Of a stretch of 64,000 nt of DNA, positions 7,423 to 42,697 are shown in pieces. The notes under the pieces were generated by a model. The model did not search any database. It was given only the letters and a program-made list of their open reading frames with translations, and had not been told where the DNA came from. Position numbers and translations under genes: made by a program. The first letter of the stretch is position 1. The number at the start of each line of letters is the position of its first letter. The DNA is from a virus. The stretch is from positions 32,001 to 96,000 of the IMG/VR virus record IMGVR_UViG_3300042897_000994; one strand, given 5' to 3'.

Positions 7423-7779
7423 ATGAGAACATTTAGCGAATACATCAACGAATCTAACGAAAAAGAATTTAAACTTTTCGAATCTTCGATACATGAAGAA
7501 CTTACTCCTGAACAAGAAGCAAAGATTAACGAAGCTCTTGAGAAATTTATGGAGAAATATGAAGAAGGATATACTTTAGAAGAGCTTTCAGAAGAAATGA
7601 CTAACGAAGGAATCATCGGTTCTATTCTCGGTGGTTTAACTGGATTTGCTCTAGGTAGCACGGTTGGAAAAATGATAGCTAAAATTTTAGGAGTTGAAAA
7701 AGGTATTTTTTACGACATGTTAACCAGTAGACTTGTAGGAGCAGCTCTTGGAGCTTCTTTGGGCAAGCGAATTATATGA
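7423..7779 (+). CDS. putative internal virion protein: capsid-targeting-like N-terminus, glycine-zipper C-terminus
   Basis: Starts MRTFSEYINE. Ends with GIIGSILGGLTGFALG..LVGAALGASLG. Late motif at 7399. Confidence 0.6.
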   Translation: MRTFSEYINESNEKEFKLFESSIHEELTPEQEAKINEALEKFMEKYEEGYTLEELSEEMTNEGIIGSILGGLTGFALGSTVGKMIAKILGVEKGIFYDMLTSRLVGAALGASLGKRII

Positions 7780-8399
7780 GATACGTAGGTATAGATTTTT
7801 CAATTAATAGTCCAGCAATCTGCATTTTAGAAAAAGATGCATATCACTTTGTAGGATTTTACAACGAAGAGGGAAAAAAGTTCGAAAAGAAAGACCCCTC
7901 TGATTATTCATATCACAGAAAGCTTCTTTCTCTCAAAGATGTAGATATCATACATTTCAGCAGAAGAAAAAAGAATGAAAATTATTCTGTCGATCAAAGA
8001 CAAAAAATCGAAGACAGTCACACTTTAGGGAAGCTAATAGCTGAGAATATTGGTTCCGAAAAAAATAAAGTAGGAATCGAAGGTTATAGCTATGGTTCGA
8101 AGGGAAATAGTTTTATAGATCTTATCTCTTTCAATTCTGTAATGAGACATGTATTGTACACGGATACGGATTCAGAGATTTTTGTTAGAACACCTAGTCA
8201 AGTTAAAGGATTAGCTGGAAAAGGAAATGCAAATAAGTCAATGATGTACGAATACTTTTGTCAGAATACAACGAAGGATCCGAATCTAGAAAAGTCTTCT
8301 TTTTGGAAATGGTGTATTGAACAGAAGTTCGTCGGAGAGATTCCGAAACCTATAGATGATCTGATAGACTCTTATTTTATCTCTAGATCTGTTCAGTAG
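7776..8399 (+). CDS. RuvC-like Holliday junction resolvase
   Basis: RNase H-fold catalytic motifs VGIDFS, IEGYSYGS, PSQVK..AGKGNANK, DDLIDS. Confidence 0.8.
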   Translation: MRYVGIDFSINSPAICILEKDAYHFVGFYNEEGKKFEKKDPSDYSYHRKLLSLKDVDIIHFSRRKKNENYSVDQRQKIEDSHTLGKLIAENIGSEKNKVGIEGYSYGSKGNSFIDLISFNSVMRHVLYTDTDSEIFVRTPSQVKGLAGKGNANKSMMYEYFCQNTTKDPNLEKSSFWKWCIEQKFVGEIPKPIDDLIDSYFISRSVQ

Positions 8400-8447
8400 A
8401 GCTCTGTAGCTCTTAGAGTCTTTCCTTCCCAAAACTTCAGATAAATT

Positions 8448-8473
8448 TTATAGTATGCGATCTGAGAAAGTTT
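8448..8473 (-). promoter_or_regulatory. AAAC-N17-TATAA promoter on the minus strand (antisense/divergent)
   Basis: The reverse complement reads AAAC tttctcagatcgcatac TATAA, the same 17-nt spacing as the plus-strand copies. Confidence 0.5.
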
Positions 8474-8510
8474 ACTGATCTCGTAAAAAAAATTTATTCC
8501 CAGAAAAAAT

Positions 8511-8536
8511 AAACTTTTCATCGTTTCCGGATATAT
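8511..8536 (+). promoter_or_regulatory. AAAC-N17-TATA promoter upstream of the SSB gene
   Basis: AAAC 8511-8514, 17 nt, TATAT 8532-8536 (also GATATATA). Confidence 0.55.
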
Positions 8537-8557
8537 ATTATGTAAGGTTTTTTTAAG

Positions 8558-8677
8558 GGCAACTTTTATTTTTTATGGCAATTCGCGGCAAGTCTAAAAT
8601 TTTTTAGGAGCTTTTTTAAACTTCTTACGGCAAATCTTTATTAATTAAACAACAAAAAAGGCAAATTAAAATGGCAA
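8558..8677 (+). repeat. six GGCAA pentamers in the SSB leader and start
   Basis: GGCAA at 8558, 8577, 8587, 8629, 8660 and 8673 in an otherwise A/T-rich stretch. Confidence 0.7.
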
Positions 8678-9591
8678 ATGAATTCGACATTTTCAATCTA
8701 GGGGTCAATGACATTGACACCTACACAAGAGAAGCTTCCGGCGGAAGTGATCTCTTCAAACCCACAGCAGATCAAGGTAAAGACGGAGTCTACAAAGCAT
8801 TAGTTAGATTCGTACCTAATCCAAAGAATCCCCAAAAATCAATTATTAGAAAATTTGTTTATTGGCTGGAAGATGGTGCAGGTAACGGAGGTTACTATGA
8901 TTCACCTTCTACAGTAGGAGAAAAATGTCCTGTACAGGATCTTTTCTTTAAACTGAGAAATTCTGAATCGGCAGTAGACAAAAAGATGTCTGAAAAACTG
9001 AAAAGAAGAGAAATTTTCTATTCTTTAATTCAGATTATCAAAGACTCAAACAGTCCTGATCAAGAGGGTTCTATTAAAATTTTCAAGTACGGTTACAAAA
9101 TTAAAGAAAAAATTGATGCCGAGTTGAATCCAGAGTTTGATGAACCTACACAGGTTTTTGATTTATTCGAAGGTAAAAACTTTGAAATGATCATCACCAA
9201 ACAAGCTGGTTACAACAACTACGACTCATCAAAATTTCAAGGAAAAAGAACTCCAATTTTGGTAAACGGAAAAGCAGTTGAAAAAGATGCAGAAGGTAGA
9301 AAGCAAATTTTAGAATATCTAAATTCTTCTCCTTCTCTAGATTCTTTTGACTACAAACCTTGGGATGATGCAACTCGATCTAAAATTGAAGATATTTTGA
9401 ATCAATATAGATCTCCAGGTTCAGCAATATCCACGGTCTCTTCCAAGAAGAGCCAAACTTCTGAATCCGCATCATTTGATAGTTTTGGTTTTGATGAACC
9501 TAAAGCTTCGGCACCTGCAACTTCAACTTCATCGGCATCTGAAGAAGATTCGGATGATCTAGATGAATTCTTGAAGGGTCTTGACATCTAA
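8671..9591 (+). CDS. gp32: single-stranded DNA-binding protein (T4 gp32-like)
   Basis: G.YKALVRFVP, SPSTVGEKCPV, IFKYGYKIKEKI, VFDLFEGKNF, YNNYDSSKF; acidic tail DDLDEFLKGL. Confidence 0.9.
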   Translation: MANEFDIFNLGVNDIDTYTREASGGSDLFKPTADQGKDGVYKALVRFVPNPKNPQKSIIRKFVYWLEDGAGNGGYYDSPSTVGEKCPVQDLFFKLRNSESAVDKKMSEKLKRREIFYSLIQIIKDSNSPDQEGSIKIFKYGYKIKEKIDAELNPEFDEPTQVFDLFEGKNFEMIITKQAGYNNYDSSKFQGKRTPILVNGKAVEKDAEGRKQILEYLNSSPSLDSFDYKPWDDATRSKIEDILNQYRSPGSAISTVSSKKSQTSESASFDSFGFDEPKASAPATSTSSASEEDSDDLDEFLKGLDI

Positions 9592-9593
9592 AA

Positions 9594-10667
9594 ATGCCAA
9601 CAAAATTGTCTACAGACAAAATAAGTCGGGAAGAGATAACTCTGAAGATTGAGCAGGTCTTAGACAGATGTCACGGCAATTTAGAAAAAAGAAGAGCAAG
9701 AGAATCTCACAGCAGGCTTAATTTTGCTTGTCCATATTGCGGAGATTCTTCTTCAGACATGAGAAAGAAGAGGGGCAACCTATACTGGGAGTCCCTCTCT
9801 TTCCATTGTTTTAATTGTAATAAACATCGAGATCTAGATGCATTTTTACGTGATTTTGATAATGGCTTCGAAGGAGAAAAAAGGCTAAGCTTAGTAAATT
9901 TCTTGAGAGAAAGAGCTACTTACAACATACCTAAAACTCTAGACTTTTATCTTTTTCAGAAAATAGAAGAGCTCGCAATTACCAAAGCAGAATTATTTTC
10001 TGCTCTCAATGTTTATCCGATAAATTCAAATACAAAACGAGCATATCCATATCTACAAAGCAGACTGTTAACTCATCGCCTTGAAAATTTTGGATATGAT
10101 CCAAAGAGAAGAACTCTATATGTATTTAATTTTAATTCTGATAAAACTAAGATCATAGGTTATCAGACTCGTTATTTAGAAGATTCTGCTTCCAAATATT
10201 TGAGTTATAATCTTTTTAGAATGAGAGAAAAATTGAATCAACCTGAAGTAGAAATAAATGATACTGATAAAGATTCAATAAATAGAATATCAATGCTGTT
10301 TGGTATTCTGCAAATAGATCTTTCTCGAATCTTCACCATCTTCGAAGGCCCCATAGATGCAATGTTTATGAAAAATTCTTTGGCTTTAACTGGAGTAAGC
10401 AAAAGCACATTTAACTTTGATGAACTTGATTCTGTAAGGTACATGTTAGATAATGATTATGAAGGAAAGAGAAAAATGGTTGAAAAACTAAAACTTGGAA
10501 AAAAGGTTTTTATGTGGAGAAAGTTTATTGAAGAAAATAGACTCTCTAGACATAAAATTAAGGACTTAAACGATTTAGTTAAAGTTGCATATAAAGAAAA
10601 AAGAGATGTTTTGAGAGAAATCAATCTTTATTTTACAGATAACTCAAAAGATCTAATATATGTATGA
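9594..10667 (+). CDS. gp61: DNA primase (T4 gp61-like)
   Basis: Zn ribbon NFACPYCGDS..FHCFNC; TOPRIM motifs FEGPIDAMF, LDND, KDLND. Confidence 0.9.
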   Translation: MPTKLSTDKISREEITLKIEQVLDRCHGNLEKRRARESHSRLNFACPYCGDSSSDMRKKRGNLYWESLSFHCFNCNKHRDLDAFLRDFDNGFEGEKRLSLVNFLRERATYNIPKTLDFYLFQKIEELAITKAELFSALNVYPINSNTKRAYPYLQSRLLTHRLENFGYDPKRRTLYVFNFNSDKTKIIGYQTRYLEDSASKYLSYNLFRMREKLNQPEVEINDTDKDSINRISMLFGILQIDLSRIFTIFEGPIDAMFMKNSLALTGVSKSTFNFDELDSVRYMLDNDYEGKRKMVEKLKLGKKVFMWRKFIEENRLSRHKIKDLNDLVKVAYKEKRDVLREINLYFTDNSKDLIYV

Positions 10668-10872
10668 CAAGGTAATGGAAGATCTCGATAAATTTTTCGA
10701 TGAAAAAAATAATAGAGATAAAAAATTGAAATTTTTTGTTGAAATCGAGACTTCTGATGTTAATATAGAAGAACACCCCTTTATCTTTCCAGAACCAATC
10801 CAAAAGAAAAAAACTATAGTCAGGGTTGCGACTAAAAGAAAGGGTAAAGATAGCAAAGATAATCTATTCTAA
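10660..10872 (+). CDS. small protein with a C-terminal -NLF tail
   Basis: 70 aa, overlaps both neighbours. Confidence 0.55.
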   Translation: MYDKVMEDLDKFFDEKNNRDKKLKFFVEIETSDVNIEEHPFIFPEPIQKKKTIVRVATKRKGKDSKDNLF

Positions 10873-11312: not shown

Positions 11313-11326
11313 AAAAATAAAGAAAA

Positions 11327-12835: not shown

Positions 12836-12863
12836 AGATATATAAAAAAAATTATTTTTAAGG

Positions 12864-13697
12864 ATGCAACCAATACAGAAATTTTCTGATTACTTCAAAG
12901 GTTATCAGACTACACAAGAAGCTATTCGCGAAGCAGATCTTCAAAAAGAATACGGTGAAGTTTTCATGTCTCTTTTGAAAAAATATGGAGTTAGTAGTCC
13001 AGCAGAGCTAGACGAAGAAAAGAAGAAAGAATTTTTCGATGAAATCGGAGGTCTTTATAAAAAGGGAGAAGGTCAAACTGCTAAGGGCGAAGAATTAGTA
13101 GACACTGAAAAACCTGAGCCCGTTAAAGAAGAGGAAAATGAAGAAGAGGAAGAAGAAGACGAAGAAGGTGTGAAGATTCCTAAAAAGAAAGACGAAGAAA
13201 CAGCTGCAGAAATAGAAGCAGAAATCGATGATATGGGTGAACCTAAAGATTCTGAAGATAAAGGAGATGAAGTTCCTAAAGACTCAGAAGAAGTCGAGGT
13301 AGAAGTTGAAGAAGAACCTGCAGCACCAGAAGCTGGAACTGAGGTTGATAAAGAAGAAGATAAAGAAACTGACAAAGATATTGAAGCTGAGATTGATGCA
13401 ATGGGTGAACCTAAAGATTCTGAAGATAAAGGAGATGAAGTTCCCGCCGATGCTGAAGAAGTTGAAGTAGAAGTTGAAGAAGAACCTGCAGCACCAGAAG
13501 CTGGAACTGAGGTTGATAAAGAAGAAGATAAAGACACAGCAAAAGAAATCGAAGCTGATAAAGTTGAAATGGGTAAACCAAAGAAAGCTGTTATGAGTTT
13601 TGATGAATTTGTTTCTTCTAAGAATGAGTCTACTACCAAAGGAGAAGAATCCGAATTAGAGGATGAAGATTTGGATGATGTAGACGATCTTGGGTAA
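12864..13697 (+). CDS. highly acidic putative prohead-core/internal protein with 56-aa repeats
   Basis: N-terminal IQKFSDYF and LKKYGVSSPAEL..KKEFFDEI; Glu-rich; late motif at 12837. Confidence 0.6.
   Translation: MQPIQKFSDYFKGYQTTQEAIREADLQKEYGEVFMSLLKKYGVSSPAELDEEKKKEFFDEIGGLYKKGEGQTAKGEELVDTEKPEPVKEEENEEEEEEDEEGVKIPKKKDEETAAEIEAEIDDMGEPKDSEDKGDEVPKDSEEVEVEVEEEPAAPEAGTEVDKEEDKETDKDIEAEIDAMGEPKDSEDKGDEVPADAEEVEVEVEEEPAAPEAGTEVDKEEDKDTAKEIEADKVEMGKPKKAVMSFDEFVSSKNESTTKGEESELEDEDLDDVDDLG
13233..13580 (+). repeat. 168-bp (56-aa) tandem duplication inside the acidic protein
   Basis: ATGGGT(G/A)AACC starts at 13233, 13401 and 13569; the first two units are near-identical. Confidence 0.9.
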
Positions 13698-13712
13698 TCA
13701 CAAAAAAATGAA

Positions 13713-14843
13713 ATGAAGCACATTAAACTATTTGAAGAATTCTCGGCCACATTCGAGGCTCAAACCAAGCTAACACCTGAGCAAGAGAAGTTCTTAAATA
13801 GGTCAGTAGGAGGAACTTGGTCTTTGAATCCTCAGACAGGACTTGTTGATGTAGATGGCTATGTCAACTGTTCTAATGAGGGTCTACAAGATCTTAAAGG
13901 CGTCAGATTCGGGAACGTAAGTGGGAGTTTCTCGTGCAGCTATAATAAGCTCACAAGTCTGGCAGGAGCACCACAGACCGTTGGTAAGGATTTCCATTGT
14001 GATATGAATAAGCTCACCTCACTGGTGGGAGCACCACAGGCTGTTGGGGGGATAAATGCCTTTACTGTATCAGGCACTACGGGGAGTTTCTGGTGTATGA
14101 ACAATCAGCTCACCTCACTGGTGGGAGCACCGCAGGCTGTTGGCGGGGATTTCCGTTGTCATAACAATGTGCTCACCTCTCTAGAGGGAGCACCTCAGAC
14201 CGTTAAATGGGGTTTCCTTTGTAGTAACAATCAGCTCACCTCTCTAGTGGGAGCACCAAAGACCGTTGGTAAGGAATTCGATTGTAGTAACAATCAGCTC
14301 ACCTCACTGGTGGGAGCACCTCAGAAGGTTGGTGACGAATTCGATTGTAGAAATAATCCTCAACTTACCTCATTAGAAGGAGCGCCGAAAGCAAAGAGAA
14401 TTGCTAGTGATATTAATAAAACCACGGTGGCTCCGCGGTCTTTTTCTATTGCCAGCGAATTCGAGGATTATGAAAATGGCAAAACTTATGATCTACAGGG
14501 TGAATGGGAAGATTTTAATTTTTCTGTTAAAGGAGACACCGTAATCTTTTCTGGTAAAGCTTATATAGGTGATGTAAAAGGAAGTTATAGTGATAAAAGG
14601 GGTTTAGAAATGACCATGATGGTTGATATATTCACATTTGCAGATTGGTTTAAAGATAATCCTGTAAAGATCATATATAGAGTCAACAAAATCAAACCTG
14701 AAGATGTAATTGGTGATATTCATAACACCCTTGCCGCAATTAATGACTCTGGGACTGATTGGGAATCAGTAAAAGATGTTAGTAAATTTCTTAGAGATAA
14801 TGGATTAAAAACTACATCTAAAATATTAGAGCCTGAAGATTAA
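13713..14843 (+). CDS. LRR-like 21-aa repeat protein with capsid-targeting-like N-terminus
   Basis: MKHIKLFEEF start; seven FxCxxNxLTSLxGAPxxVGxx units. Confidence 0.75.
   Translation: MKHIKLFEEFSATFEAQTKLTPEQEKFLNRSVGGTWSLNPQTGLVDVDGYVNCSNEGLQDLKGVRFGNVSGSFSCSYNKLTSLAGAPQTVGKDFHCDMNKLTSLVGAPQAVGGINAFTVSGTTGSFWCMNNQLTSLVGAPQAVGGDFRCHNNVLTSLEGAPQTVKWGFLCSNNQLTSLVGAPKTVGKEFDCSNNQLTSLVGAPQKVGDEFDCRNNPQLTSLEGAPKAKRIASDINKTTVAPRSFSIASEFEDYENGKTYDLQGEWEDFNFSVKGDTVIFSGKAYIGDVKGSYSDKRGLEMTMMVDIFTFADWFKDNPVKIIYRVNKIKPEDVIGDIHNTLAAINDSGTDWESVKDVSKFLRDNGLKTTSKILEPED
13928..14388 (+). repeat. 63-bp coding tandem repeat (7 units, one with a 33-bp insertion)
   Basis: GCTCAC core at 13949, 14012, 14108, 14171, 14234 and 14297; degenerate at 14363. 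Confidence 0.9.
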
Positions 14844-14861
14844 TCAAAATTGATTCTAGAT

Positions 14862-14893
14862 AAAAAAGAGGTCACCTATGGCCTCTTTTTTTT
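14862..14893 (+). terminator. intrinsic terminator
   Basis: AAAAAAGAGGTCA-loop-TGGCCTCTTTTTTTT. Confidence 0.8.
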
Positions 14894-14946
14894 GTTTACA
14901 TAATTACTTATTATAATAAAAAAAGAATGCCCTAAAATGCACGAGA

Positions 14947-15402
14947 ATGAATTCGATGATTTTAATTGGTTCCCTGACCATCCCTTCAGTCAGCCCGCTA
15001 AACCTATTACAGGAACTATATCGGGAGAATCCCTGGAAGATGCTGGTATGTTGTCTATTTCTGAATCAGACAACCAGAAAGCAAGTCGACAAGATCCGTG
15101 AAGAATTTTTCTTAAGATATCCGTCTCCTCAAGATCTATTAAAAACTGGAGATGAAGAAATTGAAGATCTGATCAAATCTCTAGGGTTTAAAAGAGTTAG
15201 AACACAAAGACTAAAGAGATTCTCTCTAGAATTTATTTCTAAAGAATGGAAAGAACCTATTGAGTTACATGGAATAGGGAAGTATGCCCAAGAATCTTGG
15301 GAAATATTTCAGAAGCTCAACTTCAATGTTCAACCTACAGATGGAGCTTTAATCGATTATTTGAACTGGTTGGAAATATATAAAACAAATGGCAGGAATT
15401 AG
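14947..15402 (+). CDS. MBD4-like HhH DNA glycosylase (T:G/U:G mismatch type)
   Basis: SPLNLLQE..PWKMLVCCLFLNQT..YPS..LG..WKEPIELHGIGKY..SWEIF..VQPTD..L..YLNWL matches the MBD4 catalytic domain as I recall it; start codon uncertain. Confidence 0.8.
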   Translation: MNSMILIGSLTIPSVSPLNLLQELYRENPWKMLVCCLFLNQTTRKQVDKIREEFFLRYPSPQDLLKTGDEEIEDLIKSLGFKRVRTQRLKRFSLEFISKEWKEPIELHGIGKYAQESWEIFQKLNFNVQPTDGALIDYLNWLEIYKTNGRN

Positions 15403-16540
15403 TACATTAGATTCTTTTTACAAAAAAGAGGGAAAAGAAAAACTAGATAATCTTCTCAAGAATTATGTAGTGATAGTTGAGAAGTTTTCAGCTTGTAATT
15501 TTTACATTCAAAGATCGGGTGATCAGGTTTCTTTTTATAAGAAAGATGATCAAAACATGATAGGACTAATAGATAGAACTTTTACGCAATTATACGAAAA
15601 GGCTATTTCCCATTTTTTGAAATTTGACTCTACGGACTTTCCAGAAAACTATAGATTTGGTTTTGAATATTTTCCAAATAATAAACCCGGAGAGATTGAA
15701 TATATCAGTATTCCTGAAAATTCTTTAGTTCTAACGAGAATAATGATTAAAAATTCAGCAGGTAAAACTGTAAAAGTAATTGATGATGATAAAGTTCTAG
15801 AAAACTGGGCGAGCATTTTAGACGTTTCATACAACACTCCAATTTTTTCTGGTGAGCTTTCTGATAAACAGAGAAATACTCTTGTAGAAATGGTGATTAA
15901 TTCTTCAGACAATGTAAAACGTAAATTTCTTTCTCTTTTTGAATCATATGAAGCACCAGCTCAAAGTGACACTTTCGATTCATATATCTTTAAAATTGTT
16001 TCACCGGGATCTGTTAAAAAATATAAATTTGTAGATGTTTCTGTTCCTCTCACTGAAAAAACTTCACAAGAAGCAAGACGAGGTTCTGTGGATTCCGTTT
16101 CAATTTTAATCTTAGATGTTTTAGATTTTATCGAAAGTGAAGGACTTCCTCAACTGTTATCGGGCTCAAATGACGAGGAAAAATACATTGATCTTATTTC
16201 CCAACTGTACAATAGGTACATGAGTAAATATGAGAGTGGAGTTGCTGGAATGACTTTTGATAAAAAGGACTTTGCAGATTCTCCAGAGTTTGATGTTAAT
16301 TTAAACATGATTAAAAATCCAACAACTCTACGGTTTTTGGAAAAATCGGATACCAACAAGACTATATTTAAAATTCTTCTAAACTCATTTAGAAAGTATA
16401 GAGATACAGAAATGGCAAATGATGTCTTAACCCCACAGGTATTAAAAGACTTTAATCTTAGAGTTGATGAAATCAAATCTCTAAGCAAGAAAATCTCAAA
16501 TGATATAAAGACCTTTTCTGAATTTGTAGGTGATATATAA
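15389..16540 (+). CDS. divergent RNA-ligase-like (nucleotidyltransferase-fold) protein, possibly inactive
   Basis: VIVEKFSACNF occupies the EKxDGxN motif-I position, followed by FGFEYF and PIFSGEL; late motif at 15376. Confidence 0.45.
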   Translation: MAGISTLDSFYKKEGKEKLDNLLKNYVVIVEKFSACNFYIQRSGDQVSFYKKDDQNMIGLIDRTFTQLYEKAISHFLKFDSTDFPENYRFGFEYFPNNKPGEIEYISIPENSLVLTRIMIKNSAGKTVKVIDDDKVLENWASILDVSYNTPIFSGELSDKQRNTLVEMVINSSDNVKRKFLSLFESYEAPAQSDTFDSYIFKIVSPGSVKKYKFVDVSVPLTEKTSQEARRGSVDSVSILILDVLDFIESEGLPQLLSGSNDEEKYIDLISQLYNRYMSKYESGVAGMTFDKKDFADSPEFDVNLNMIKNPTTLRFLEKSDTNKTIFKILLNSFRKYRDTEMANDVLTPQVLKDFNLRVDEIKSLSKKISNDIKTFSEFVGDI

Positions 16541-16556
16541 AAAAATCCTATAAAAT

Positions 16557-18167
16557 ATGATAAGTAGTTTCGACGACTTTTTAGATGAAGGTAAAGTACA
16601 AGTTAAAAGACGGTATACTGAAAACTATCCGTCCAAACATGTTTATAGCGGAGCTAAAATCAGGAATGCAGTTCTTTCTGCAATTAAAGACGGCGTTGTA
16701 ACCGAAGAAGAATTTCAAAAGATTTTAGACGAAGCTGGAGCTTCTAGAATTTGGAAATACAAATACAATCATCTTTTTGACGTCAACGAAGACGGCGTAA
16801 AACTTTCATCAAAAGGTCTTAAACTCTGTCCTGTTGAAAGAATTGAAGAAGCTGATAAGATTGATGAAGTTTCAACTTCAATAGCTCAACAAAGACTAAT
16901 GGGAATGGCCTATGCCTTGAAAACGGGCGAAATGGACCCTGAGGATGCTAGTGATGAAGTAAAAGATTTAGCTAAAAACATGACAGTTAAACAGCTAAAA
17001 GATTTTGCATCTACCAAGCATAAAGGTCTTCCCTATAAAAAAGAAAATGAAAATCTTACATTACCAGATGTCCCCGGCATGGGAGCCGTTAAACTACCCG
17101 GAAACCCAGGAACATCTACACAGTTTGATAATCAAGAAACCGGATCTGGTGATATTCCTTACCCGATACCAAACAAGAAAAAAATGAAAAAAATGAAACT
17201 AATTCCAGAATCTTTTGAAGAGTTTTCAGAATCTCTAATCAATGAAGCATTTGCATCTTCTATTTTACAAAATTTAACTGCAGGAAAGTCAGATCTTAAC
17301 AAGAAATTTTTTGATGCATTGTCAAGAATGGGAATTGCTGCATCCGATATTGAAGATGATCAAATAATTGAATTGAAAACCAGCGATGCCAAAAAATATA
17401 CAAAGCAAAACCCCAATTCCATATTGATTTATTATTCTACTACAGAAAAGCCAAATCCGTTTGCTGGTAGTGGAGCATGGAGTAGTTCTAAAACTATCCC
17501 AGGTGATATGCCTTTAGCCGTTGTAAAAGATAAGATATACATGGGATTAAAATATGACAGATACTCTAGAGGAAGTAAACCAGAGTATTCTTTAGTTCAG
17601 AATCCAGGCGGCACTATAGGAATCGATAAAGCTGGAGGAACTTATGGTTCGGGATTAACGACATTAGATAAAATAGCAGCGGTGTCTGATATTGTGTATG
17701 TAATTGATCCTACTGTAATACCTTCTTCTTCTGCAAAAAGAGCAGAAAGAAAACAGTCTAGATCCGGAGCCACTGCATATGTTAGTGATAAAGATTTTAA
17801 AGCTCAAAATAAAGCAAGATACGATGTTATTCTAGCAGACAGAGCTTCTAAATTGCCACTAGATAAAGAAGTTGGTGAAGCTATCGATATTTTGGCTTCT
17901 CACATCAAAGATGCTATCTCTTCAGGAGCTAAAACTAGATATGGGGAAATCCTTATCGGTACAGATCCAAAAGGAAGAGAAATTAAAATGAGTGATGCCA
18001 GTAGCATCATGAGAAATCTTTTAGATGATTTTGGAAGATATGTAGATTATACAAATAAATCTGCAGAAGAAGGTAGTAGCAGATACTATGAAGCAGAATC
18101 TAAGCAATATGCTAAATCAGTTTCGGATAGACTTCGAAAAATTAAGAATAAAGACTATGCTTGGTAA
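16557..18167 (+). CDS. multidomain putative internal virion protein with a DUF3008-like segment
   Basis: MISSFDDFLDE start; STSIAQQRLMG..MTVKQLKDFASTKHKGLP; internal second tag ESFEEFSESLINE; late motif at 16532. Confidence 0.6.
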   Translation: MISSFDDFLDEGKVQVKRRYTENYPSKHVYSGAKIRNAVLSAIKDGVVTEEEFQKILDEAGASRIWKYKYNHLFDVNEDGVKLSSKGLKLCPVERIEEADKIDEVSTSIAQQRLMGMAYALKTGEMDPEDASDEVKDLAKNMTVKQLKDFASTKHKGLPYKKENENLTLPDVPGMGAVKLPGNPGTSTQFDNQETGSGDIPYPIPNKKKMKKMKLIPESFEEFSESLINEAFASSILQNLTAGKSDLNKKFFDALSRMGIAASDIEDDQIIELKTSDAKKYTKQNPNSILIYYSTTEKPNPFAGSGAWSSSKTIPGDMPLAVVKDKIYMGLKYDRYSRGSKPEYSLVQNPGGTIGIDKAGGTYGSGLTTLDKIAAVSDIVYVIDPTVIPSSSAKRAERKQSRSGATAYVSDKDFKAQNKARYDVILADRASKLPLDKEVGEAIDILASHIKDAISSGAKTRYGEILIGTDPKGREIKMSDASSIMRNLLDDFGRYVDYTNKSAEEGSSRYYEAESKQYAKSVSDRLRKIKNKDYAW

Positions 18168-23479: not shown

Positions 23480-24232
23480 ATGGAAATCAAAATTAAGAAA
23501 ATAGACACTGCAGAATTTCAGTTGTTTGTTAAGAAATTATTGTCTATCGACAAGTTCATTTTTATGAAAGTTGGAGAAAAGGTTACATCTTCTTCTGTCT
23601 TTCTTCCACAACGGGATGCCGTAAAATTAGTAAACGTTAAGACTTCTGATCTTTTTGATTCTGAAGCTTGGCCTGATCAACCGGTTAAAGTTTCTTTCTT
23701 TAATGGAAATAAGATTATAGAAGCTCTTTCTCATTTCGGTGGAGAATGTTCAGGAAAAATTATCTATGATAAAGTAGGGAATGATTTTGTTGCAAGTGAC
23801 TTTATTATTGAAAATGATAATCTAAAGATCAAACTCTTTTGCGCGGATCCAAGTTTAAACTTTATGGATATGAAAGAAGATGAAACCAAGAGAGCATTTA
23901 CAACTACAGATTCAAAATTCTCTTTTGAACTTTTAACAATCCATGCAGACAAGATGAAGTCTCTTTTCTCTCTCGATAAAGAAAAAGAAACTTATAAGTT
24001 ATATGCAGATTCTAGAGGTGTAAGTATTAAAGGTGAAAATTATGATGCCATCATTACTCACTCTGTTGAAATGGATTCTGAAAATGAAGAAGTTACAATT
24101 TATAAAAAGTATAGTCCTCTTCTAGATAAAGAAAACTACAAAGTAGTAGTATGCGGAAATAAAATTGTATTTAAGTCTCTAGATACTGCAACATATTTAA
24201 CTGTAGCTGTAGCTATCATAGACGAAGAATAA
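23480..24232 (+). CDS. putative sliding clamp (gp45-like)
   Basis: 250 aa with a two-domain alpha/beta pattern (KLFCADPS linker), coupled to the polymerase subunit. Confidence 0.6.
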   Translation: MEIKIKKIDTAEFQLFVKKLLSIDKFIFMKVGEKVTSSSVFLPQRDAVKLVNVKTSDLFDSEAWPDQPVKVSFFNGNKIIEALSHFGGECSGKIIYDKVGNDFVASDFIIENDNLKIKLFCADPSLNFMDMKEDETKRAFTTTDSKFSFELLTIHADKMKSLFSLDKEKETYKLYADSRGVSIKGENYDAIITHSVEMDSENEEVTIYKKYSPLLDKENYKVVVCGNKIVFKSLDTATYLTVAVAIIDEE

Positions 24233-25368
24233 TGAAAGAAGATATAGAAGATCTAAAAAAACAACTTAAAGAAATAGAACAAGAGTCTCAGAAGTATTAC
24301 AACTACGAACAAGCTGTTAAATTAACTCTAAACTCAATTTACGGCGCATTCGGTAATGAGTGGTTCTATTTCTTTAATGTAGACATTGCAGAAACAATTA
24401 CCCTGCAAGGTCAAGACGCAATCTTTTATACCGAAAAACTGATCAATAAGTACTTTCATGATTTTTGGCACAAAGACACGGAAGTACATAAGGAGCTTGG
24501 AATTGAGATTAAAGGCGAAGTAAAGAAGCCTATTGTAATCTACATCGACACAGACTCATGTTATCTTAGATTCGAAGAAGTTCTTGAAAAATGTACTTGG
24601 GATAAATCAGAAAAAGAATTTATTCTCAAGATTTATAATATCAGACTAAAGTCATACATTGAAAATGTTCTTAGTTCCTATGCAAAAAAGAACAACTCTG
24701 ATAACTTTCTTTCATTCGAACTTGAATCGATAGCCAAAAATGCAATCTGGCTAGCAAAAAAGAAATACATGCAAAACATTGTATGGAAAGATCCAGATAT
24801 TCATTTCGAGGCCTTGAGTAAAATAAGTACAAAAGGATTTGAAATCATACAATCAAGTACTCCGCTTTTCGCTCGAAACAAGCTAAAGGAAATCATCAAA
24901 TATATCTTTTCAGTAGATAAAGTAAATTATCCAGATTTGATTGCTCTTTTGAAAAAAATTAAAAGAGAATTTAAACTTGCAAATATCGAGCATATATGTT
25001 TCAATCTAAGAATTGGAAACTATCAGAAATATATTGTTAACGACTATTCTGAATTTGAAATAGCTTCAGGTTGTCCAATGCACGTTAGGGCATCTGGGTA
25101 TTATAATTATTTACTAAATAACAGTACGCACAAAGGAAAATATAAACTTCTTGCCAATTCAGAAAAGGTAAAAATGTATATAAGCAAAGATTCTGCATGT
25201 GACGTATTTGCATTTCCTCCTGGGAATCACCCTTATGAATTTGCACCTTCAGTAGATTATGATGCACAATTCGAAAAAGCAATAATTGATCCTATGAATC
25301 GAGTTATTGCGGCAATGAGCCTTCCTATACTAGATAGAAATTTAATTTATACAACAACGCTCTTTTAA
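24232..25368 (+). CDS. family B DNA polymerase, C-terminal subunit (motifs B and C, thumb)
   Basis: Starts with a coiled coil, then KLTLNSIYG, ITLQGQ, YIDTDS, KKKY, KGFEII.SSTP, PMHVRAS. Confidence 0.9.
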   Translation: MKEDIEDLKKQLKEIEQESQKYYNYEQAVKLTLNSIYGAFGNEWFYFFNVDIAETITLQGQDAIFYTEKLINKYFHDFWHKDTEVHKELGIEIKGEVKKPIVIYIDTDSCYLRFEEVLEKCTWDKSEKEFILKIYNIRLKSYIENVLSSYAKKNNSDNFLSFELESIAKNAIWLAKKKYMQNIVWKDPDIHFEALSKISTKGFEIIQSSTPLFARNKLKEIIKYIFSVDKVNYPDLIALLKKIKREFKLANIEHICFNLRIGNYQKYIVNDYSEFEIASGCPMHVRASGYYNYLLNNSTHKGKYKLLANSEKVKMYISKDSACDVFAFPPGNHPYEFAPSVDYDAQFEKAIIDPMNRVIAAMSLPILDRNLIYTTTLF

Positions 25369-28208: not shown

Positions 28209-28775
28209 ATGATGGAAGAAGAAGAATTTGAAGACGAGTCATTGTCCAGGAGGATAGATGATATAGACGAACTGTACAAAGTAGAAAAAGTATCAGATGA
28301 AGAAGAGAACCCAGATATTGAAGAAGAAATCAGCAATGGATTACGGGTAGATAAGATTTTTGATAATTCATTTGGTGAAAGTGAATATGATGGAAGCAAG
28401 TCGAATTTCGCGGTAGATGCGCAATTTCATGATTATGAAGAAGCCGAAGAAAAAATTCATTACAACTTACTGTTCGAAAAGATTCACGCTCTTATAAAAA
28501 GTTCTCAATATTCAGCATTAAATGAAGTTAAAGAGAATGGCAAGATCTCAAAACTAAATAAAATGCAAATTAATCAAGTATATGGATTTGTCTTAAACTC
28601 TCTTCCCGGTACTGAAAGAAAGATTGAAATTTTTTCAATTCTTTCTGATTATTTTGACATTCATCCATCTAAGTTCTATTCTTCACTTTCAAACAAATAC
28701 AAGAATGATCTGATAATAGAGTTAGATCAGTCTATGAATATTTTTGAAAAGAAGAAGATCAGAAGATTATTTTAA
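28209..28775 (+). CDS. probable late-transcription coactivator (gp33-like)
   Basis: Acidic N-terminus; C-terminal IEIFSILSDYFDI..LSNKYKNDLIIEL..MNIF resembles the gp33 core; ends RRLF. Confidence 0.45.
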   Translation: MMEEEEFEDESLSRRIDDIDELYKVEKVSDEEENPDIEEEISNGLRVDKIFDNSFGESEYDGSKSNFAVDAQFHDYEEAEEKIHYNLLFEKIHALIKSSQYSALNEVKENGKISKLNKMQINQVYGFVLNSLPGTERKIEIFSILSDYFDIHPSKFYSSLSNKYKNDLIIELDQSMNIFEKKKIRRLF

Positions 28776-32451: not shown

Positions 32452-32491
32452 AAAGACACTAACTACTAGATATATAAAAAAAATCTGAATA

Positions 32492-35281: not shown

Positions 35282-35282
35282 A

Positions 35283-35951: not shown

Positions 35952-35957
35952 TAAAAA

Positions 35958-37619: not shown

Positions 37620-37661
37620 AATTTTCGAATTAACAAAGATATATAAAAAAAATTATAGAGC

Positions 37662-39482
37662 ATGGCTCATAAAAAACTTCTTATTTTAGAAAGATCCGGA
37701 GAAACCCTTAAAACGACAGCTGATGACGGTTCGGTTGTTCTAGAAGGCGTTTTCACACAAATTGGAGTTCGTAATAAAAATAACAGAATTTACGAAGAGA
37801 AAGAATTTCTTCCTCATGTTAAAGATCTTCAAGAAAAAATCAAGGGCAAAAAACTTTTAGGTGAATTAGATCACCCAAAGTCTTTCGATATTTCACTTGC
37901 CAACGTATCACACGTAATTGAAAAATTAGAGTACGATCCGTCAACCAAGCAAGTAATGGGAAGAATTAGACTTCTTGATACAGATGCAGGAAAACAAGCC
38001 AAAGCTTTAGTAGAGGCCGGTGTTCCTCTTAATATTTCATCTAGAGCCTCTGGGCGAGTTGATGAAAATGGAAAAGTAAAAATTCAGAAACTATTTACTT
38101 ATGATCTAGTAGCCGATCCAGGATTTGAAGCTGCTGAATTACATAGAGTAAATGAATCTCTAGGGTTTGACGACAGTGATGATCTATTGATTTATGAATT
38201 TGAAGATCTCAATTCAGAAGAAACTAAAGTAGAAGTTAAACCTGAAGAAATTGTTCAAGAGTCAAAACCTGAAATCAAAGAACCAATAAAAGAAAATACA
38301 GAAGAAAATACTCAACCTACTATGAATTATGTTAAAGTTGAAGATTTCGATAAGTACTCAGAATATCTGAAAACCGAAATCACGCAAATTAAAGAAGAGG
38401 CTTCAAAAGAGTCTATAGACTTCGAAACCTTCGAAAAGCTGGTTAAATATACTGAGCATATTGCTGAGAAACTTAATCAAGTTCACGATTATTCTAATTA
38501 CTTAGGAGAAAACTTAGATAAGAGTATTTCTCATGGTGATTATATCGTTGAAAGCGTAAATAAATTGAAAGACTATGCTAATTACTTAGCAGAAAGTTTA
38601 CAAAACGGGATTGGCTACTCTGAATATGTTGCTAATAAGCTCGAAGAGTCTATCAAATATCAAAACTATTTAGCAGAAAACGTTCAAAAGGGTATTGATT
38701 ATACTGAATATGTTGCCGAAAACCTAGACAATAGTATTCAGTACCAAAACTATTTGGCTGAAAATCTTGAAAGCTCTATTAAATACTCCGATTATCTAAA
38801 GGAGAATATCGAGAAGATCGGTAAATATGCAGACTACATTGCTGAAAGTGTTAATAGAATTCAAGAAAACAAACCAGCAGATGAAGAAACTCCAGCAATT
38901 AAAGTTGAAGAATCTGTAGAAACAACTCCAGAAGTTAAAGTTGAAGAGAATGATACTACTGTATCATATCAAGATCAAATTTCTAAGAAATTGAATGCTC
39001 TATTAGAATCAGCAGTAGTACAAAAAGAAGAAGATCACTTCTTTAGATTTTTAGACGCTTCTAAGAGAAATGAATTTTCTTCTCTTAACGAAAGTAAGCA
39101 AAACGAAATCAAAGGTGCATTTGAAATCAATAAATATTTTTCTGTTGCAGATGCAAATAGAATTTGGGAATCTTGCTTTATTCAAAAGCCAACTTCTCTA
39201 GATGTAGTTGGTAATATGCCAGAAAAATATAAAGCAAAGTGGGAATCTTTAAACGAGTCTCAACGAAGCAGTATTCTTGCCCAGTCTAAGTTTTGGCCTT
39301 TGAATACACAGTATCAGATTGATAACTTCTGGCAAACAAGAGACTTAAGAACTGTTAAAGTTAATTCTCCAGTTAATGAATCTTCTGTAGCTCCTTTAGC
39401 ACCAGAAGATAAGAATGCAGCAGTTAACGAACAGCTTGAAAATATCAAAAATGCAATTAAAGCAAGATTTGATAAGTTCTAA
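37662..39482 (+). CDS. gp21: prohead protease (gp21) fused to a scaffold/core (gp22-like) region
   Basis: LEGVF..RNKNNRIY, LGELDHP, NVSH, ISSRASG, TYDLVADPGF, then 14-aa Y.EY.AE.L repeats. Confidence 0.88.
   Translation: MAHKKLLILERSGETLKTTADDGSVVLEGVFTQIGVRNKNNRIYEEKEFLPHVKDLQEKIKGKKLLGELDHPKSFDISLANVSHVIEKLEYDPSTKQVMGRIRLLDTDAGKQAKALVEAGVPLNISSRASGRVDENGKVKIQKLFTYDLVADPGFEAAELHRVNESLGFDDSDDLLIYEFEDLNSEETKVEVKPEEIVQESKPEIKEPIKENTEENTQPTMNYVKVEDFDKYSEYLKTEITQIKEEASKESIDFETFEKLVKYTEHIAEKLNQVHDYSNYLGENLDKSISHGDYIVESVNKLKDYANYLAESLQNGIGYSEYVANKLEESIKYQNYLAENVQKGIDYTEYVAENLDNSIQYQNYLAENLESSIKYSDYLKENIEKIGKYADYIAESVNRIQENKPADEETPAIKVEESVETTPEVKVEENDTTVSYQDQISKKLNALLESAVVQKEEDHFFRFLDASKRNEFSSLNESKQNEIKGAFEINKYFSVADANRIWESCFIQKPTSLDVVGNMPEKYKAKWESLNESQRSSILAQSKFWPLNTQYQIDNFWQTRDLRTVKVNSPVNESSVAPLAPEDKNAAVNEQLENIKNAIKARFDKF
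38448..38855 (+). repeat. about ten 14-aa repeats in the scaffold region
   Basis: YTEHIAEKL / YSNYLGENL / YANYLAESL / YSEYVANKL / YQNYLAENV / YTEYVAENL / YQNYLAENL / YSDYLKENI / YADYIAESV. Confidence 0.8.
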
Positions 39483-39585
39483 AGATATATAAAAAATAAT
39501 AATCACGTAACTCGGATATCAAGAAGCAAAAGGTGTTGGGACCAAACGTGAAATAACAAAAACAACAAAAAAACTCAATCAAAAA

Positions 39586-41271
39586 ATGAATCATTTAATT
39601 AATGAAGCCGAAGTTGTAAGAACTTGGGCGCCCGTGATTGAGGAAGCTACTGGTATTTCAGACAAAGGTAAATTAAACTGGATGTCTAAATACTGCCACT
39701 TCCATCAGTTGAATGAGAATGTGTACAACCAAGTACACTTGAATCCTAACGCCAACGTTTATGGTATGGGTGCAGTTACCTTCCCAGGTGACCCAACCAC
39801 TACTACTGGATTCAATGCTCAAGCAACCGGATCTGGTGACAGACCTTTCAGTCTGCTTCCTCTAGCTATGCAAGTAGCTGCTCAAACAGTAGGTCTTGAC
39901 CTTGTTCCTGTAGTACCAATGTCTGGTCCTCTTGGAATCTTGACTTACTTAGACTTTATCTATGCTGGTGGTAGACTAGATTCTACTGAACCGCCATTGA
40001 TGGTTAAAGTTAACACTACTACCGCTACTTTTGGTAGTTCTTTAACGAATGCTACTGCATGGACTGCTAACACTACATATTATCTATGTTCTGCTGCTGG
40101 TGCTGCTACTTATGCTCTTACTTTTGTAGGTCTATCTCGTATCGACGGATTACCTATCTTTAAAGTAAATGCTTACAATAGTGGTGCAGCTCAGCCTAAC
40201 GGTACTGCAGGTACTGTAACTTTAGCAGCTGCAGCTATTGCTACTGCAACAATTTCAACCAATGCTAATGGTACAGGTGACATCGTTACATTTACCGCAA
40301 GCGGAACTCTTGAACTTGTAAAAGCTCTTGAAGATCATATCCCAGGTTTCTCTGGTGCTGGTTTTGCTCCTGCTGCAGTAACAGGTGGTAACAGTGTTGC
40401 TAACGTTGAACCTTTCTTGAGAGCTGATGGTGAATTAACATCAGATAACCTAATGGGTCTTTCATTGTTCAATAAATCAGTTGCTGCTGAAACTTACCAA
40501 GTTGCAGCTGCTGTAACTAGAGAGCAAGTACAAGACCTTAAGCAATTCGGTATTGATGCAGTAGCTCAAGTAGAAGCTGTATTGGTTAATGAATTGACTC
40601 AGTCAATCAACAAGTTGATTCTTCAGAGAATCTTCAGACTAGGTGCAAGTAACGCAGAAAACGTATTTAACGTTGATGCTACTAACTTAAACCTTTTTGT
40701 AGCTGCAACGGCTACAACCACTTCTATCGATCTTGGTACTAATGCAAATGGAGTAGCCGTAAGTATTCTTACTTCTTCTACTATCCCTACATCAGGTGAC
40801 AACGGTGGTACATTGCAAAGAAAGATTTTATCTAGAATCCTAGCTGCTTCAAACTTGATCGCTATCCGTGGTCGTAGAGGAGCTGCTAACTTTGCAGTAA
40901 CTAACGGTCAACTTGCTACTGCAATCCAAGATATCGCTGGATTTACTCCATACCCAATGGCTAACACCGTTAACCAAAACGGTGGATCTCTATATCCAGT
41001 TGGTTCTGTTGCAGGTGTAACTATCTACGTAGATCCTAACATGTCATGGACTGACACTAGAATCGTAGTAGGTAGAAAAGGTGACGGTAACTCTCCAGGT
41101 CTAGTATTCATGCCTTACTTAATGGCTGAATCTGCCCAGACTATTGCTGAAATGACTATGGCACCTAAAATTGCTGTTAAGTCAAGATTCACTCTAGTTG
41201 ATGCTGGTTTCCACCCAGAAACTATGTACTTCACTCTAGGAGTTAAGTTTACTAGTTACTCAATCGTTTAA
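39586..41271 (+). CDS. gp23: major capsid protein (gp23-like)
   Basis: WAPVIE, DLVPVVPMSGP.G...YLDF.Y, EQVQDLK, L.NEL...INK, G.VFMPY, PKIAVKSR; strongly biased codon usage. Confidence 0.92.
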   Translation: MNHLINEAEVVRTWAPVIEEATGISDKGKLNWMSKYCHFHQLNENVYNQVHLNPNANVYGMGAVTFPGDPTTTTGFNAQATGSGDRPFSLLPLAMQVAAQTVGLDLVPVVPMSGPLGILTYLDFIYAGGRLDSTEPPLMVKVNTTTATFGSSLTNATAWTANTTYYLCSAAGAATYALTFVGLSRIDGLPIFKVNAYNSGAAQPNGTAGTVTLAAAAIATATISTNANGTGDIVTFTASGTLELVKALEDHIPGFSGAGFAPAAVTGGNSVANVEPFLRADGELTSDNLMGLSLFNKSVAAETYQVAAAVTREQVQDLKQFGIDAVAQVEAVLVNELTQSINKLILQRIFRLGASNAENVFNVDATNLNLFVAATATTTSIDLGTNANGVAVSILTSSTIPTSGDNGGTLQRKILSRILAASNLIAIRGRRGAANFAVTNGQLATAIQDIAGFTPYPMANTVNQNGGSLYPVGSVAGVTIYVDPNMSWTDTRIVVGRKGDGNSPGLVFMPYLMAESAQTIAEMTMAPKIAVKSRFTLVDAGFHPETMYFTLGVKFTSYSIV

Positions 41272-41292
41272 TCTAACTTAGATTCGATACCC

Positions 41293-41326
41293 AAAGGGGG
41301 ACTCTTAGGAGTCCCCTTTTTATTTT
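41293..41326 (+). terminator. intrinsic terminator after the capsid gene
   Basis: AAGGGGGACTC-TTAG-GAGTCCCCTTTTT. Confidence 0.9.
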
Positions 41327-41359
41327 CAATAGATATATAATAGGAACAAAATAAATAGT

Positions 41360-42697
41360 ATGATGAAAAAAGTTTTAACTCTTGAAGAATATGATCAAAT
41401 AATAGAAGGCTTAAAGCCTATCAACACGGAAGAATATGATCATGATTTTATCACTTCAGTCATGTACGAAAAATTTGAAGTAGTTGATAAAACGGATAGA
41501 GAAATTAATGAAACCTTTAATCTATATTTAGCAGAAGGGGCTATATCGAATTTTATCGCTCTTTCAACAAATCCTATAACAGGAATCAAACTTGCAAATA
41601 ATGCAAAAAAATTAGCTAAAGCTCACATTCAAAACGCAACAGCTAAAATAGACTTTGAGAAGAAAATACAAGCAGCTGAAAGGGCAAAAGATAAAAATCC
41701 AGAAAAAGCTGATCAAGCTAAAAAGGCTATGGAAATTGCTAAATCGGCTTATGCTACCAAGAAAGAAGTTGCAGCTGATCAAATAGAAGCAATCCAAGAC
41801 AGGATGGGCGAATTGTCTAAAGACGATCCAAAGTTATCTAAAGTTTCCGCTCTTTTGAAAACCAAAGCTAGAGTCGAAGCAAATAAAAAGCTTCTAAGGA
41901 TATTAGATACAGAAGAAAGAAAGCAATTACAACTAACTATTAAAGATCAGGAAGAAAAAGCCAAGAATGCTGAAGCGCAAATGGCTGATTATGTTAGTTC
42001 TGAAAAAGAAAAAGATAATGCAGATAAAGGTGGAGAATCTACAGATCAGAAAGTCAAAGATTTACAAGATAAAATAGACTCAGTTCAGGATAAAATAGGT
42101 AAAACTGAAGATCCTGAAGATAAAGCTAAATTGAGCGTAGATAAAGCTAAATTGAATCAAGAGAAAGCAAAAGAAAAAGGAGAAGATTTAGATAAAGCAA
42201 ATTTTAAAGTAGCAGCTGAAACTGCAAGATTAAAATATGTACAAGATAAAACTCCTCAAAACTACTTAGAATATCTAAAGACAAGTCTTAAATACGACGA
42301 ATCTGCAGAAAATCCTAATAAAGAAGCTATCGATAAAAAGAAAGAAGCGATTAAAGACTGGGAAGAGAAAGTTAAAGCAAAACCTACTGAAAAACCAAAG
42401 GGTGACAAAACTGAACAGGAAATCGCAGATCTTAATAAAAAGAAAGAAGACTTAGCAGCTAAAATCGCAGATCAAAGAGAAGGTGTTGATACTTCTAATA
42501 AGCTTTACACCGATGCTTTGAATAAAAGAGATTCTATTAAAGATACAGAAAGCCCAGAATGGGCCAAAGCTGCTGAAGAATACAGTGCAATCTCCTCAGA
42601 AAGACAAGCAGATCTAGCTAGACTAAGCGGTCTAGAAGCTCAGTTGAAAACTATTTCGCAGAAAATTTCAGATCTCCAGGCTAAGAAGAAAAAATAA
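41360..42697 (+). CDS. Lys/Glu/Ala-rich coiled-coil putative internal virion protein
   Basis: KKVLTLEEY..IIE start, late motif at 41332. Confidence 0.55.
   Translation: MMKKVLTLEEYDQIIEGLKPINTEEYDHDFITSVMYEKFEVVDKTDREINETFNLYLAEGAISNFIALSTNPITGIKLANNAKKLAKAHIQNATAKIDFEKKIQAAERAKDKNPEKADQAKKAMEIAKSAYATKKEVAADQIEAIQDRMGELSKDDPKLSKVSALLKTKARVEANKKLLRILDTEERKQLQLTIKDQEEKAKNAEAQMADYVSSEKEKDNADKGGESTDQKVKDLQDKIDSVQDKIGKTEDPEDKAKLSVDKAKLNQEKAKEKGEDLDKANFKVAAETARLKYVQDKTPQNYLEYLKTSLKYDESAENPNKEAIDKKKEAIKDWEEKVKAKPTEKPKGDKTEQEIADLNKKKEDLAAKIADQREGVDTSNKLYTDALNKRDSIKDTESPEWAKAAEEYSAISSERQADLARLSGLEAQLKTISQKISDLQAKKKK

Follow-up and report, generated by a model that had tools for sequence, protein, structure and literature searches.

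Why do otherwise unrelated genes of a T4-like phage open with the same kind of short peptide, and what could copies of this peptide be doing inside or at the end of some of their products? The question is raised by a 64,000-nt stretch (hereafter, the window), bases 32001-96000 of the IMG/VR virus record IMGVR_UViG_3300042897_000994, which is a single contig of 160,937 bp with a G+C content of 34%, where one strand carries nearly all genes. A first-pass annotation of the window had proposed that the peptide is a modular tag resembling the capsid targeting sequence (CTS) of phage T4, which loads varied proteins into the head. The analysis conducted in the present study indicates, with high confidence, that the tag is real and is linked to head assembly; the motif is probably this clade's version of the T4 CTS, and the tagged proteins would then be docked, cleaved, packaged and injected. 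The genes of the window that carry the tag or a copy of it are listed below; they are named by their start positions in the window, L-numbers denote related loci, and an arrow marks the predicted cut.

7423..7779, + strand: w7423, candidate tagged cargo protein of 118 aa, tag MRTFSEYINE↓S (nt 7423-7452)
12864..13697, + strand: w12864, acidic tagged protein of 277 aa, leader MQPIQKFSDYF...AIRE↓A (nt 12864-12932)
13713..14843, + strand: w13713, tagged leucine-rich repeat (LRR)-like protein of 376 aa, tag MKHIKLFEEFSATFE↓A (nt 13713-13757)
15389..16540, + strand: w15389, RNA-ligase-2-like protein of 383 aa, C-terminal copy IKTFSEFVGDI up to the stop codon (nt 16502-16540), C-terminus DIKTFSEFVGDI
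16557..18167, + strand: w16557, candidate two-module tagged cargo protein of 536 aa, N-terminal tag MISSFDDFLDE↓G (nt 16557-16589)
41360..42697, + strand: w41360, tagged protein of 445 aa encoded directly after the major capsid protein (MCP) gene, weaker tag MMKKVLTLEEYDQIIE↓G (nt 41360-41407)

All motifs quoted in the first-pass annotation were found again where it had placed them. In total, ten genes are tagged at the N-terminus, five in the window and five elsewhere in the genome, where, in a whole-genome scan, a cupin was seen to begin with MLKRFEEFLNE, two RimK-type ATP-grasp ligases with MPQIKNLDSFLSE and MNKIKLFEEFIRE, and two small open reading frames (ORFs) with MLKKFQEYIKE and MKHIMLFEEFIGE. 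The consensus, hydrophobic-x-x-F-x-[E/D]-[F/Y]-[I/L]-x-E, describes a short leader that is amphipathic, and eight of the ten tags terminate in [IL]xE. The T4 internal proteins IPII and IPIII begin with MKTYQEFIAE↓A, and IPI begins with MKTFKEFTS...ITE↓A (from AF158101). In the T4 CTS, residues 4 and 7 serve mainly for targeting, processing relies on residues 8 and 10, and an Asp in place of residue 10 stops processing and leaves targeting intact (PMC9026906); the positions conserved in the tags described here are the same four.

The strict search pattern, [MILVF]xx[FY]x[ED][FY][ILVF]x[ED], was composed solely from the T4 CTS, which avoids circularity, and expectations were obtained from 500 within-protein shuffles. 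The pattern matched the proteome eight times against 0.78 expected; six matches lay at N-termini, where 0.04 were expected and no shuffle gave more than one, and the remaining four N-terminal tags match a looser form of the CTS pattern. The shorter core F[SDEQ][DE][FY] is 8-fold enriched in the first 15 residues of proteins (eight occurrences, versus 18 in the other ~49,000 residues). The proteome-wide motif scan suggested in the first-pass annotation thus speaks for the tag.

The tagged proteins are unrelated, with non-overlapping Pfam and PHROG results (none, LRR, DUF3008, RimK, cupin), and range from a glycine-zipper protein, an acidic protein, an LRR protein and a DUF3008-containing two-module protein to the cupin and the RimK-type ligases. 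The DNA encoding the tag differs synonymously from gene to gene, so selection acts on the tag peptide; a recent duplication of a promoter-plus-tag DNA cassette is ruled out by the same synonymous differences.

A second regularity concerns transcription. The sequence ATATATAA (usual form GATATATAAAAAA) occurs 31 times on the + strand, with 26 of these occurrences at most 50 nt upstream of a start, and appears to behave as the late promoter of the phage, since it is found before the portal, protease, MCP and several tail and baseplate-region genes. The following copies concern the genes considered here.

7399..7406, + strand: late-promoter-like ATATATAA, 24 nt upstream of w7423
12838..12845, + strand: late-promoter-like ATATATAA, 26 nt upstream of w12864
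15376..15383, + strand: late-promoter-like ATATATAA, 13 nt upstream of w15389
16533..16540, + strand: late-promoter-like ATATATAA, 24 nt upstream of w16557
37639..37646, + strand: late-promoter-like ATATATAA, 23 nt upstream of the protease-scaffold gene w37662
41333..41340, + strand: late-promoter-like ATATATAA, 27 nt upstream of w41360

The earlier assignment of an individual late motif to every listed tagged gene but w13713 is therefore correct, as is the statement that w13713 directly follows w12864 and lacks such a motif. Across the genome, an own late motif 19-27 nt upstream was found in 8 of 10 tagged genes and in 18 of 157 untagged genes (Fisher p=4.5e-6), which bears out the anticipated enrichment behind late promoters; the two tagged genes lacking their own motif directly follow another tagged gene. 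The tagged genes of the window are placed among replication genes, so the linkage does not merely follow from where these genes lie.

The head genes of the phage contain a possible counterpart of the tag. The phage is T4-like: it encodes a gp23-type MCP (62% identity to one uncultured 462-kb phage record and ~40% to Lak phages), a portal protein, a protease of the gp21 family and a gp32-like single-strand-binding protein; the labels split DNA polymerase, clamp-loader, late sigma factor and sheath were given by eye from the ORF list alone.

37662..39482, + strand: w37662, prohead protease with a scaffold-like extension, Peptidase_S77 (gp21 family), PHROG match over residues 17-231
39586..41271, + strand: gp23-like MCP gene, late motif 101 nt upstream (39485)

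The relatedness of w37662 to the T4 protease is clearly indicated by the Peptidase_S77 match (PF03420, 54.7 bits versus a cut-off of 27), 32% identity to T4 gp21 with the motifs of the catalytic His (ELDHP/ELNHP) and Ser (ISSR/VSSR; ISSRAS in w37662) aligned, and a match to the solved gp21 structure 5jbl. The protease part is followed by an extension of 375 residues, and residues ~229-400 (nt 38346-38861) form about 11 tandem 14-aa repeats of the type Y-x-x-Y-[LIV]-A-E-[NS], for example, YQNYLAEN, YTEYVAEN and YADYIAES. Judged by its residues, the scaffold repeat appears to be the tag motif itself: the pattern [FY]x[EDNQS][FY][ILV]xE is found 17 times in the proteome versus 2.6 expected, in six N-terminal tags, seven scaffold repeats and four other places. 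The 14-residue spacing is exact in protease-scaffold homologs of 41-95% identity. When a profile of the scaffold repeats was used, an N-terminal tag was the best match outside the protease and two N-terminal tags were among the top three, a ranking that is suggestive, not proof. The T4 scaffold protein gp22 begins with MLKEQLIAE↓A and contains the sites LAES, IAEK, IAEQ and LAEN.

Related loci extend this picture. In 15 loci whose scaffold bears the repeat, the strict tag opens 29 of 139 distinct ORFs (60 aa or more) near the protease gene, where chance would give at most 2.9 tagged ORFs over all 23 loci (260 ORFs); many of these tagged ORFs lie between the protease-scaffold and MCP genes, in the place of the T4 scaffold gene 22. 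None of the 121 ORFs is tagged in the eight loci with a scaffold of another repeat (..LNEW..; 29/139 versus 0/121, p=4e-9). The distant protease-scaffold homologs with this other 14-residue repeat (30-35% identity) have no F-x-x-F tag on any neighbouring ORF, which hints at a co-variation of tag and scaffold repeat. The homologs in L036, L039 and L045 (780-815 aa), from a more distant clade, contain a 14-residue repeat ..[LI]NEW.. (e.g., LNNLNEW, ALNEW, GIHEW), and small neighbouring paralogs in L039 begin with MKIVKEYLNE↓I, which may represent a different dialect of the tag.

The copies away from N-termini are best considered in w16557. This protein consists of the N-terminal tag, module A (DUF3008), a P/G-rich linker, the internal tag MKLIPESFEEFSESLINE↓A (residues 213-230, nt 17193-17246) and module B (residues 231-536, nt 17247-18167), which has 210 homologs at E<=0.001. 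In the junction analysis, covering 120 of these homologs, the residues before module B were L/I/V at P3, E at P1 and A/S at P1' in 120 of 120 cases. Stand-alone forms of module B (328-342 aa) start with the tag, e.g., MKLLNFNEFVDHVNE and MKHIKLFEEFLSE, and the aromatic core motif is found at residues 2-14 in 116 of 118 full-length module-B proteins. Module-B homologs are up to 930 aa long and differ in their N-terminal modules; among 87 multi-module forms, the internal tag stands just before the junction in 68, and in 19 the cut site alone is kept and the aromatic motif is gone. The comparison of w16557 with its relative in L001 gives 95% identity through the internal tag and 57.5% beyond it. 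Because of the junction, the stand-alone forms and the L001 comparison, the internal copy is taken to lead a second cargo module that is exchangeable; it seems to mark the module boundary, and w16557 reads as a putative cleavable two-module, two-cargo polyprotein. Searches for a function of module B were negative: its AF2 model (pLDDT 78.9) had no Foldseek match in PDB at E<=0.001, VIA-align of residues ~190-306 matched nothing more specific than helical bundles (Z at most 8.5), and tblastn against 50,697 GenBank phage records gave no match.

The acidic protein w12864 contains acidic repeats and a second copy of the tag, MSFDEFVSSKNE, at residues 244-255 (nt 13593-13628). About 25 homologs keep the leader (MQPIQKFSDF ... 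[IV]-x-E↓ADLQKEY) as well as the C-proximal VVM[SD]FDxF[VI], with an acidic middle that is variable; many of these homologs have the second copy in their last 10-20 residues with no Glu behind it. In w12864 itself, KNE comes after the second copy, and P3 is not L/I/V. The acidic body of w12864 recalls the T4 core protein gp67, which has an acidic tail.

The third family is that of the ligase w15389. Its AF2 model (pLDDT 85.9) has T4 Rnl2 as the top Foldseek match (2hvr, E 4.6e-8), E31 and K32 do not vary in an alignment of the family, distant homologs carry PF09414, and the protein thus has the nucleotidyltransferase fold with the motif-I lysine that characterises Rnl2. Motif I is EKFSAC in w15389 and likewise in close relatives, and distant homologs have the canonical EKxDG[SA]; with the lysine retained and Asp-Gly lost, ligase activity is uncertain. 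The tail is modelled as a short helix (376-382) behind a low-confidence linker (370-374). A motif [FI]x[TS][FW]x[ED][FWY] is kept at this position in homologs down to 28% identity, with Asp or Asn at the equivalent of CTS residue 10; Asn is not among the position-10 substitutions described for the T4 CTS (PMC9026906). The chances that the C-terminal copy is a working tag are roughly even. The N-terminus of w15389, MAGISTLDSFY, was considered as a tag and rejected, being conserved as MAGI.HL.D.Y in distant ligase homologs as part of the domain. An origin of the C-terminal copy as a recombination scar or by read-through into w16557 was rejected as well, since the frames differ (16 nt from stop to ATG); the conservation of the motif down to 28% identity also contradicts such an origin.

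In all three families, those of w16557, w12864 and w15389, the internal or C-terminal copies noticed in the first-pass annotation thus proved to be conserved.

The remaining tagged genes can be described briefly. In w7423, a second site, LFE↓S, and a C-terminal glycine-zipper-like hydrophobic region follow the tag; a Pfam search of this protein gave no match, and its homolog in L001 has identical N- and C-termini. The gene w13713 is missing from the otherwise near-identical relative L001 (8289-8392), a presence/absence polymorphism of one candidate cargo gene. No Pfam or PHROG match was found for w41360, and its interpretation as a gp24-like MCP paralog was rejected (no MCP similarity, empty Atlas search). 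In relatives, likened to w41360 by position alone, an ORF of L014 located ~50 nt after the MCP gene and, in L010 and L044, one further downstream open with MKKIKLLEQFLEE or MPKVKLLEQFLQE. The two RimK-type ligase genes (PF08443, E 5e-38 and 3e-26) are adjacent (genome 106101-108552; L004:202-2653), both N-tagged, and preceded by a single late promoter; if packaged, their products would be injected peptide ligases.

These features suggest the following scheme. Late in infection, the tag would dock a protein onto the scaffold core of the prohead; the gp21-type (S77) protease would then cleave behind [L/I/V]-x-Glu, and the mature cargo would remain in the head and probably enter the host alongside the DNA. 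Since the protease-fused scaffold consists of about 11 tandem copies of the tag motif, mimicry would be the most economical mode of docking: the tag would pass for a single repeat of the scaffold and assemble along with the array, and the same cuts would remove scaffold and tags, releasing the cargo. The second module of w16557 would have the internal tag and its cut site as a leader, giving a cleavable two-cargo polyprotein, and the Glu-less C-terminal copies (of the ligase and of most w12864 homologs) would dock unclipped, by analogy with Asp-10 in the T4 CTS. Perhaps, although this wider proposal is put forward with considerable doubt, the tag is one unit of the 14-residue scaffold repeat that works at the N-terminus, between modules or at the C-terminus, where the residue at the cut position sets the fate of the cargo. 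Just as tentatively, a Glu there would let the cargo go once it has been cleaved, and with Asp, Asn or Lys the cargo would stay docked permanently, up to the breakdown of the scaffold.

Several observations weigh against this scheme or against parts of it. The internal short core occurs at about chance frequency in this genome, the helicase and ribonucleotide reductase genes included, and the strict pattern away from N-termini was found twice against about 0.7 expected, which is not significant; the case for the internal and C-terminal copies therefore rests on conservation in homologs, not on counts. No canonical (L/I)xE stands directly behind the tag of w13713, and the tag of w41360 is weak (L-E-E-Y). 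The proposal of a modular CTS-like tag on varied cargo is partly supported: late-gene specificity, the residue match to the CTS, the unrelatedness of the cargo and the presence of an S77 protease speak for it, and w13713 does not fit it in the matter of the cut site. The scaffold-repeat profile scores the N-terminal tags weakly (5.0 and 1.5 bits), and the contrast between loci with and without the repeat is a single phylogenetic split with differing gene neighbourhoods, not independent co-variation. Module B has no recognisable fold, function or effector domain. Ligase homologs of 600 aa and more have the motif inside the protein, ahead of a linker, a further tag-like motif and a cytidylyltransferase domain; in w15389, the final four codons double as the late promoter of w16557, which constrains the tail, and the motif could be a mere conserved terminal helix of the family. 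The internal tags retain a conserved Met-Lys (MKLIPESF.., MKTKFIYESF..), and an in-frame internal start at this Met could give ordinary N-tagged proteins.

The last points lead to a narrower explanation, in which the N-terminal tags are real head-loading leaders and the other copies do not target anything, being retained leaders, internal starts or, in the ligase, a terminal helix. It would account for the stand-alone module-B proteins that start with the tag, for the initiator-like Met-Lys, for the 19 of 87 multi-module homologs that hold the cut site with no aromatic motif, for the two non-N-terminal strict matches that do not exceed chance significantly and for the conservation of the ligase motif in longer enzymes as well, where it lies inside the chain; T4 itself has annotated internal starts in genes 17 and 21. 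This explanation nevertheless seems unlikely: conservation of the internal tag is strong even among homologs with only 38-44% identity in module B, the ligase tail is detached from the fold in the model, and two unrelated families keep a C-terminal or near-C-terminal copy, for which neither an internal start nor a downstream module offers an explanation. Far less probable is a role unconnected with capsid loading, where the motif would be an interaction or processing peptide of late proteins, such as a docking helix for a chaperone or late factor or a protease signal. The RNA ligase, RimK-type ligases and cupin are not usual head proteins, and T4 RNA ligase 1 acts late in morphogenesis, outside the head; moreover, head loading here, including the presence of the tagged proteins in virions and their cleavage, is inferred from sequence, which is also a reservation about the scheme as a whole. 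Such a role is hard to reconcile with the residue-for-residue agreement with the experimentally defined T4 CTS, with the recurrence of the motif as a scaffold repeat, with the invariant [LIV]xE↓[AS] at the junctions and with the position of tagged genes between the protease-scaffold and capsid genes of relatives. Compositional chance in an AT-rich, Glu/Lys/Phe-rich proteome could explain the four-residue core inside proteins, replication proteins among them; as an explanation of the tag it is extremely improbable, given the six N-terminal strict matches against 0.04 expected, the late-promoter linkage, the 29 tagged ORFs in related loci against at most 2.9 expected and the core in 116 of 118 homolog N-termini.

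The preferred reading, a CTS of T4 type, can be set beside known systems. The T4 CTS has been used for 30 years for packaging foreign proteins, and a 1996 paper by Mullaney and Black is said to have dealt with this system. In T4, the CTS is found on diverse internal proteins, IPI, IPII and IPIII, and is removed by gp21 (PMC3012670, PMC9026906, PMC9958956). Common to T4 and to the phage described here are an N-terminal leader of 10-20 residues with aromatic residues 4 and 7, I/L at 8 and Glu at 10, the following Ala/Ser/Gly, its occurrence on otherwise unrelated proteins and the paired S77 protease. Unlike T4, this is a distant uncultured phage, known from sequence alone, with scattered cargo genes that each have their own late promoter, enzymes among the candidate cargo and tags at module junctions and C-termini. 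The scaffold is rich in [LIV]AE sites, like the T4 core (gp22; gp67, gp68), which is degraded at (L/I)xE; unlike gp22, it is fused to the protease and contains a regular 14-residue array of the tag motif. How proteins are localised to the T4 core has been called unresolved and mysterious (PMC9958956).

The first-pass annotation regarded the use of such a tag away from the N-terminus as new. In the literature searched, neither CTS copies at junctions and C-termini, nor a T4-like CTS in so distant a clade, nor a scaffold built from the tag motif or the idea of the tag as a scaffold repeat was found. Processing away from the N-terminus does have a precedent in T4, where Alt and gp21 are trimmed at their C-termini (PMC9026906; PMC5694885). 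These two proteins demonstrate functional C-terminal propeptides on head proteins of T4 type; their ends are not described as CTS-like, unlike the C-terminal copies here, which carry the full aromatic motif. In the giant phages phiKZ and SPN3US, many inner-head proteins, ejection proteins among them, have propeptides that are likely to target them to the prohead and that a gp21 homolog cleaves, with several cuts per protein; these propeptides often exceed 100 residues, unlike the short, T4-like tag described here, and the sites quoted for them, ALE and SLE, agree with the sites found here only in the x-x-Glu ending (PMC5694885). A comparison can also be made with multi-domain phage proteins. 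According to PMC9503650, which cites Iyer et al. 2017, polyvalent proteins have multiple domains and are predicted to be head-packaged and injected; the proteins found here differ in having few modules, which are joined by a tag and a protease site and each also exist as a stand-alone tagged gene.

Some further features of the phage were observed. The leader of the capsid gene is unusually long, with 101 nt from the late motif to the ATG (window 39485-39610). The MCPs of the phage and of its relatives L009, L014, L017, L022 and L034 start with M-x-x-LINE-[A/T/N]-E (MNHLINEAEV, MNQLINETEV, MKLINEAEV, MNLINENEI), with a conserved [L/I]-N-E site in the first eight residues, before a gp23-like delta region. 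The gp32-like protein (8671-9591) ends in DLDEFLKGLDI, which superficially resembles the C-terminal copy of the ligase and which more likely is the counterpart of the acidic C-terminal tail of T4 gp32. Many replication-type proteins end in ..[A/S/T]LF, including the C-terminal half of the polymerase (TTTLF), an RNase H/FEN-like protein (DSLF) and a topoisomerase-like protein (SISLF); in the window, the genes with LF endings are located at 24232-25368, 45101-46315, 62058-63998, 10660-10872 and 28209-28775, and two genes beyond it (genome 101611-103877) end in VIALF and NIALF. By its sequence, this tail looks like a sliding-clamp docking tail.

As to what the finding would mean, a tag and a late promoter, both readable from sequence, may flag likely injected proteins in uncultured phages; the set flagged here comprises the two RimK-type ligases, the Rnl2-like ligase, the LRR protein, the cupin and the widespread 300-residue domain, all candidates for roles in host takeover or anti-defence. 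The natural tags at junctions and C-termini, if functional, would widen the design rules for phage-based protein delivery. The tag-motif repeats in the scaffold of this clade offer a concrete, testable model of binding. If the tentative proposal of the tag as one scaffold unit is true, it would provide a general, sequence-readable rule for the loading of enzymes, such as the RNA ligase and the RimK-type ligases, into heads of T4 type, and would explain how the T4 CTS acts, a question of long standing.

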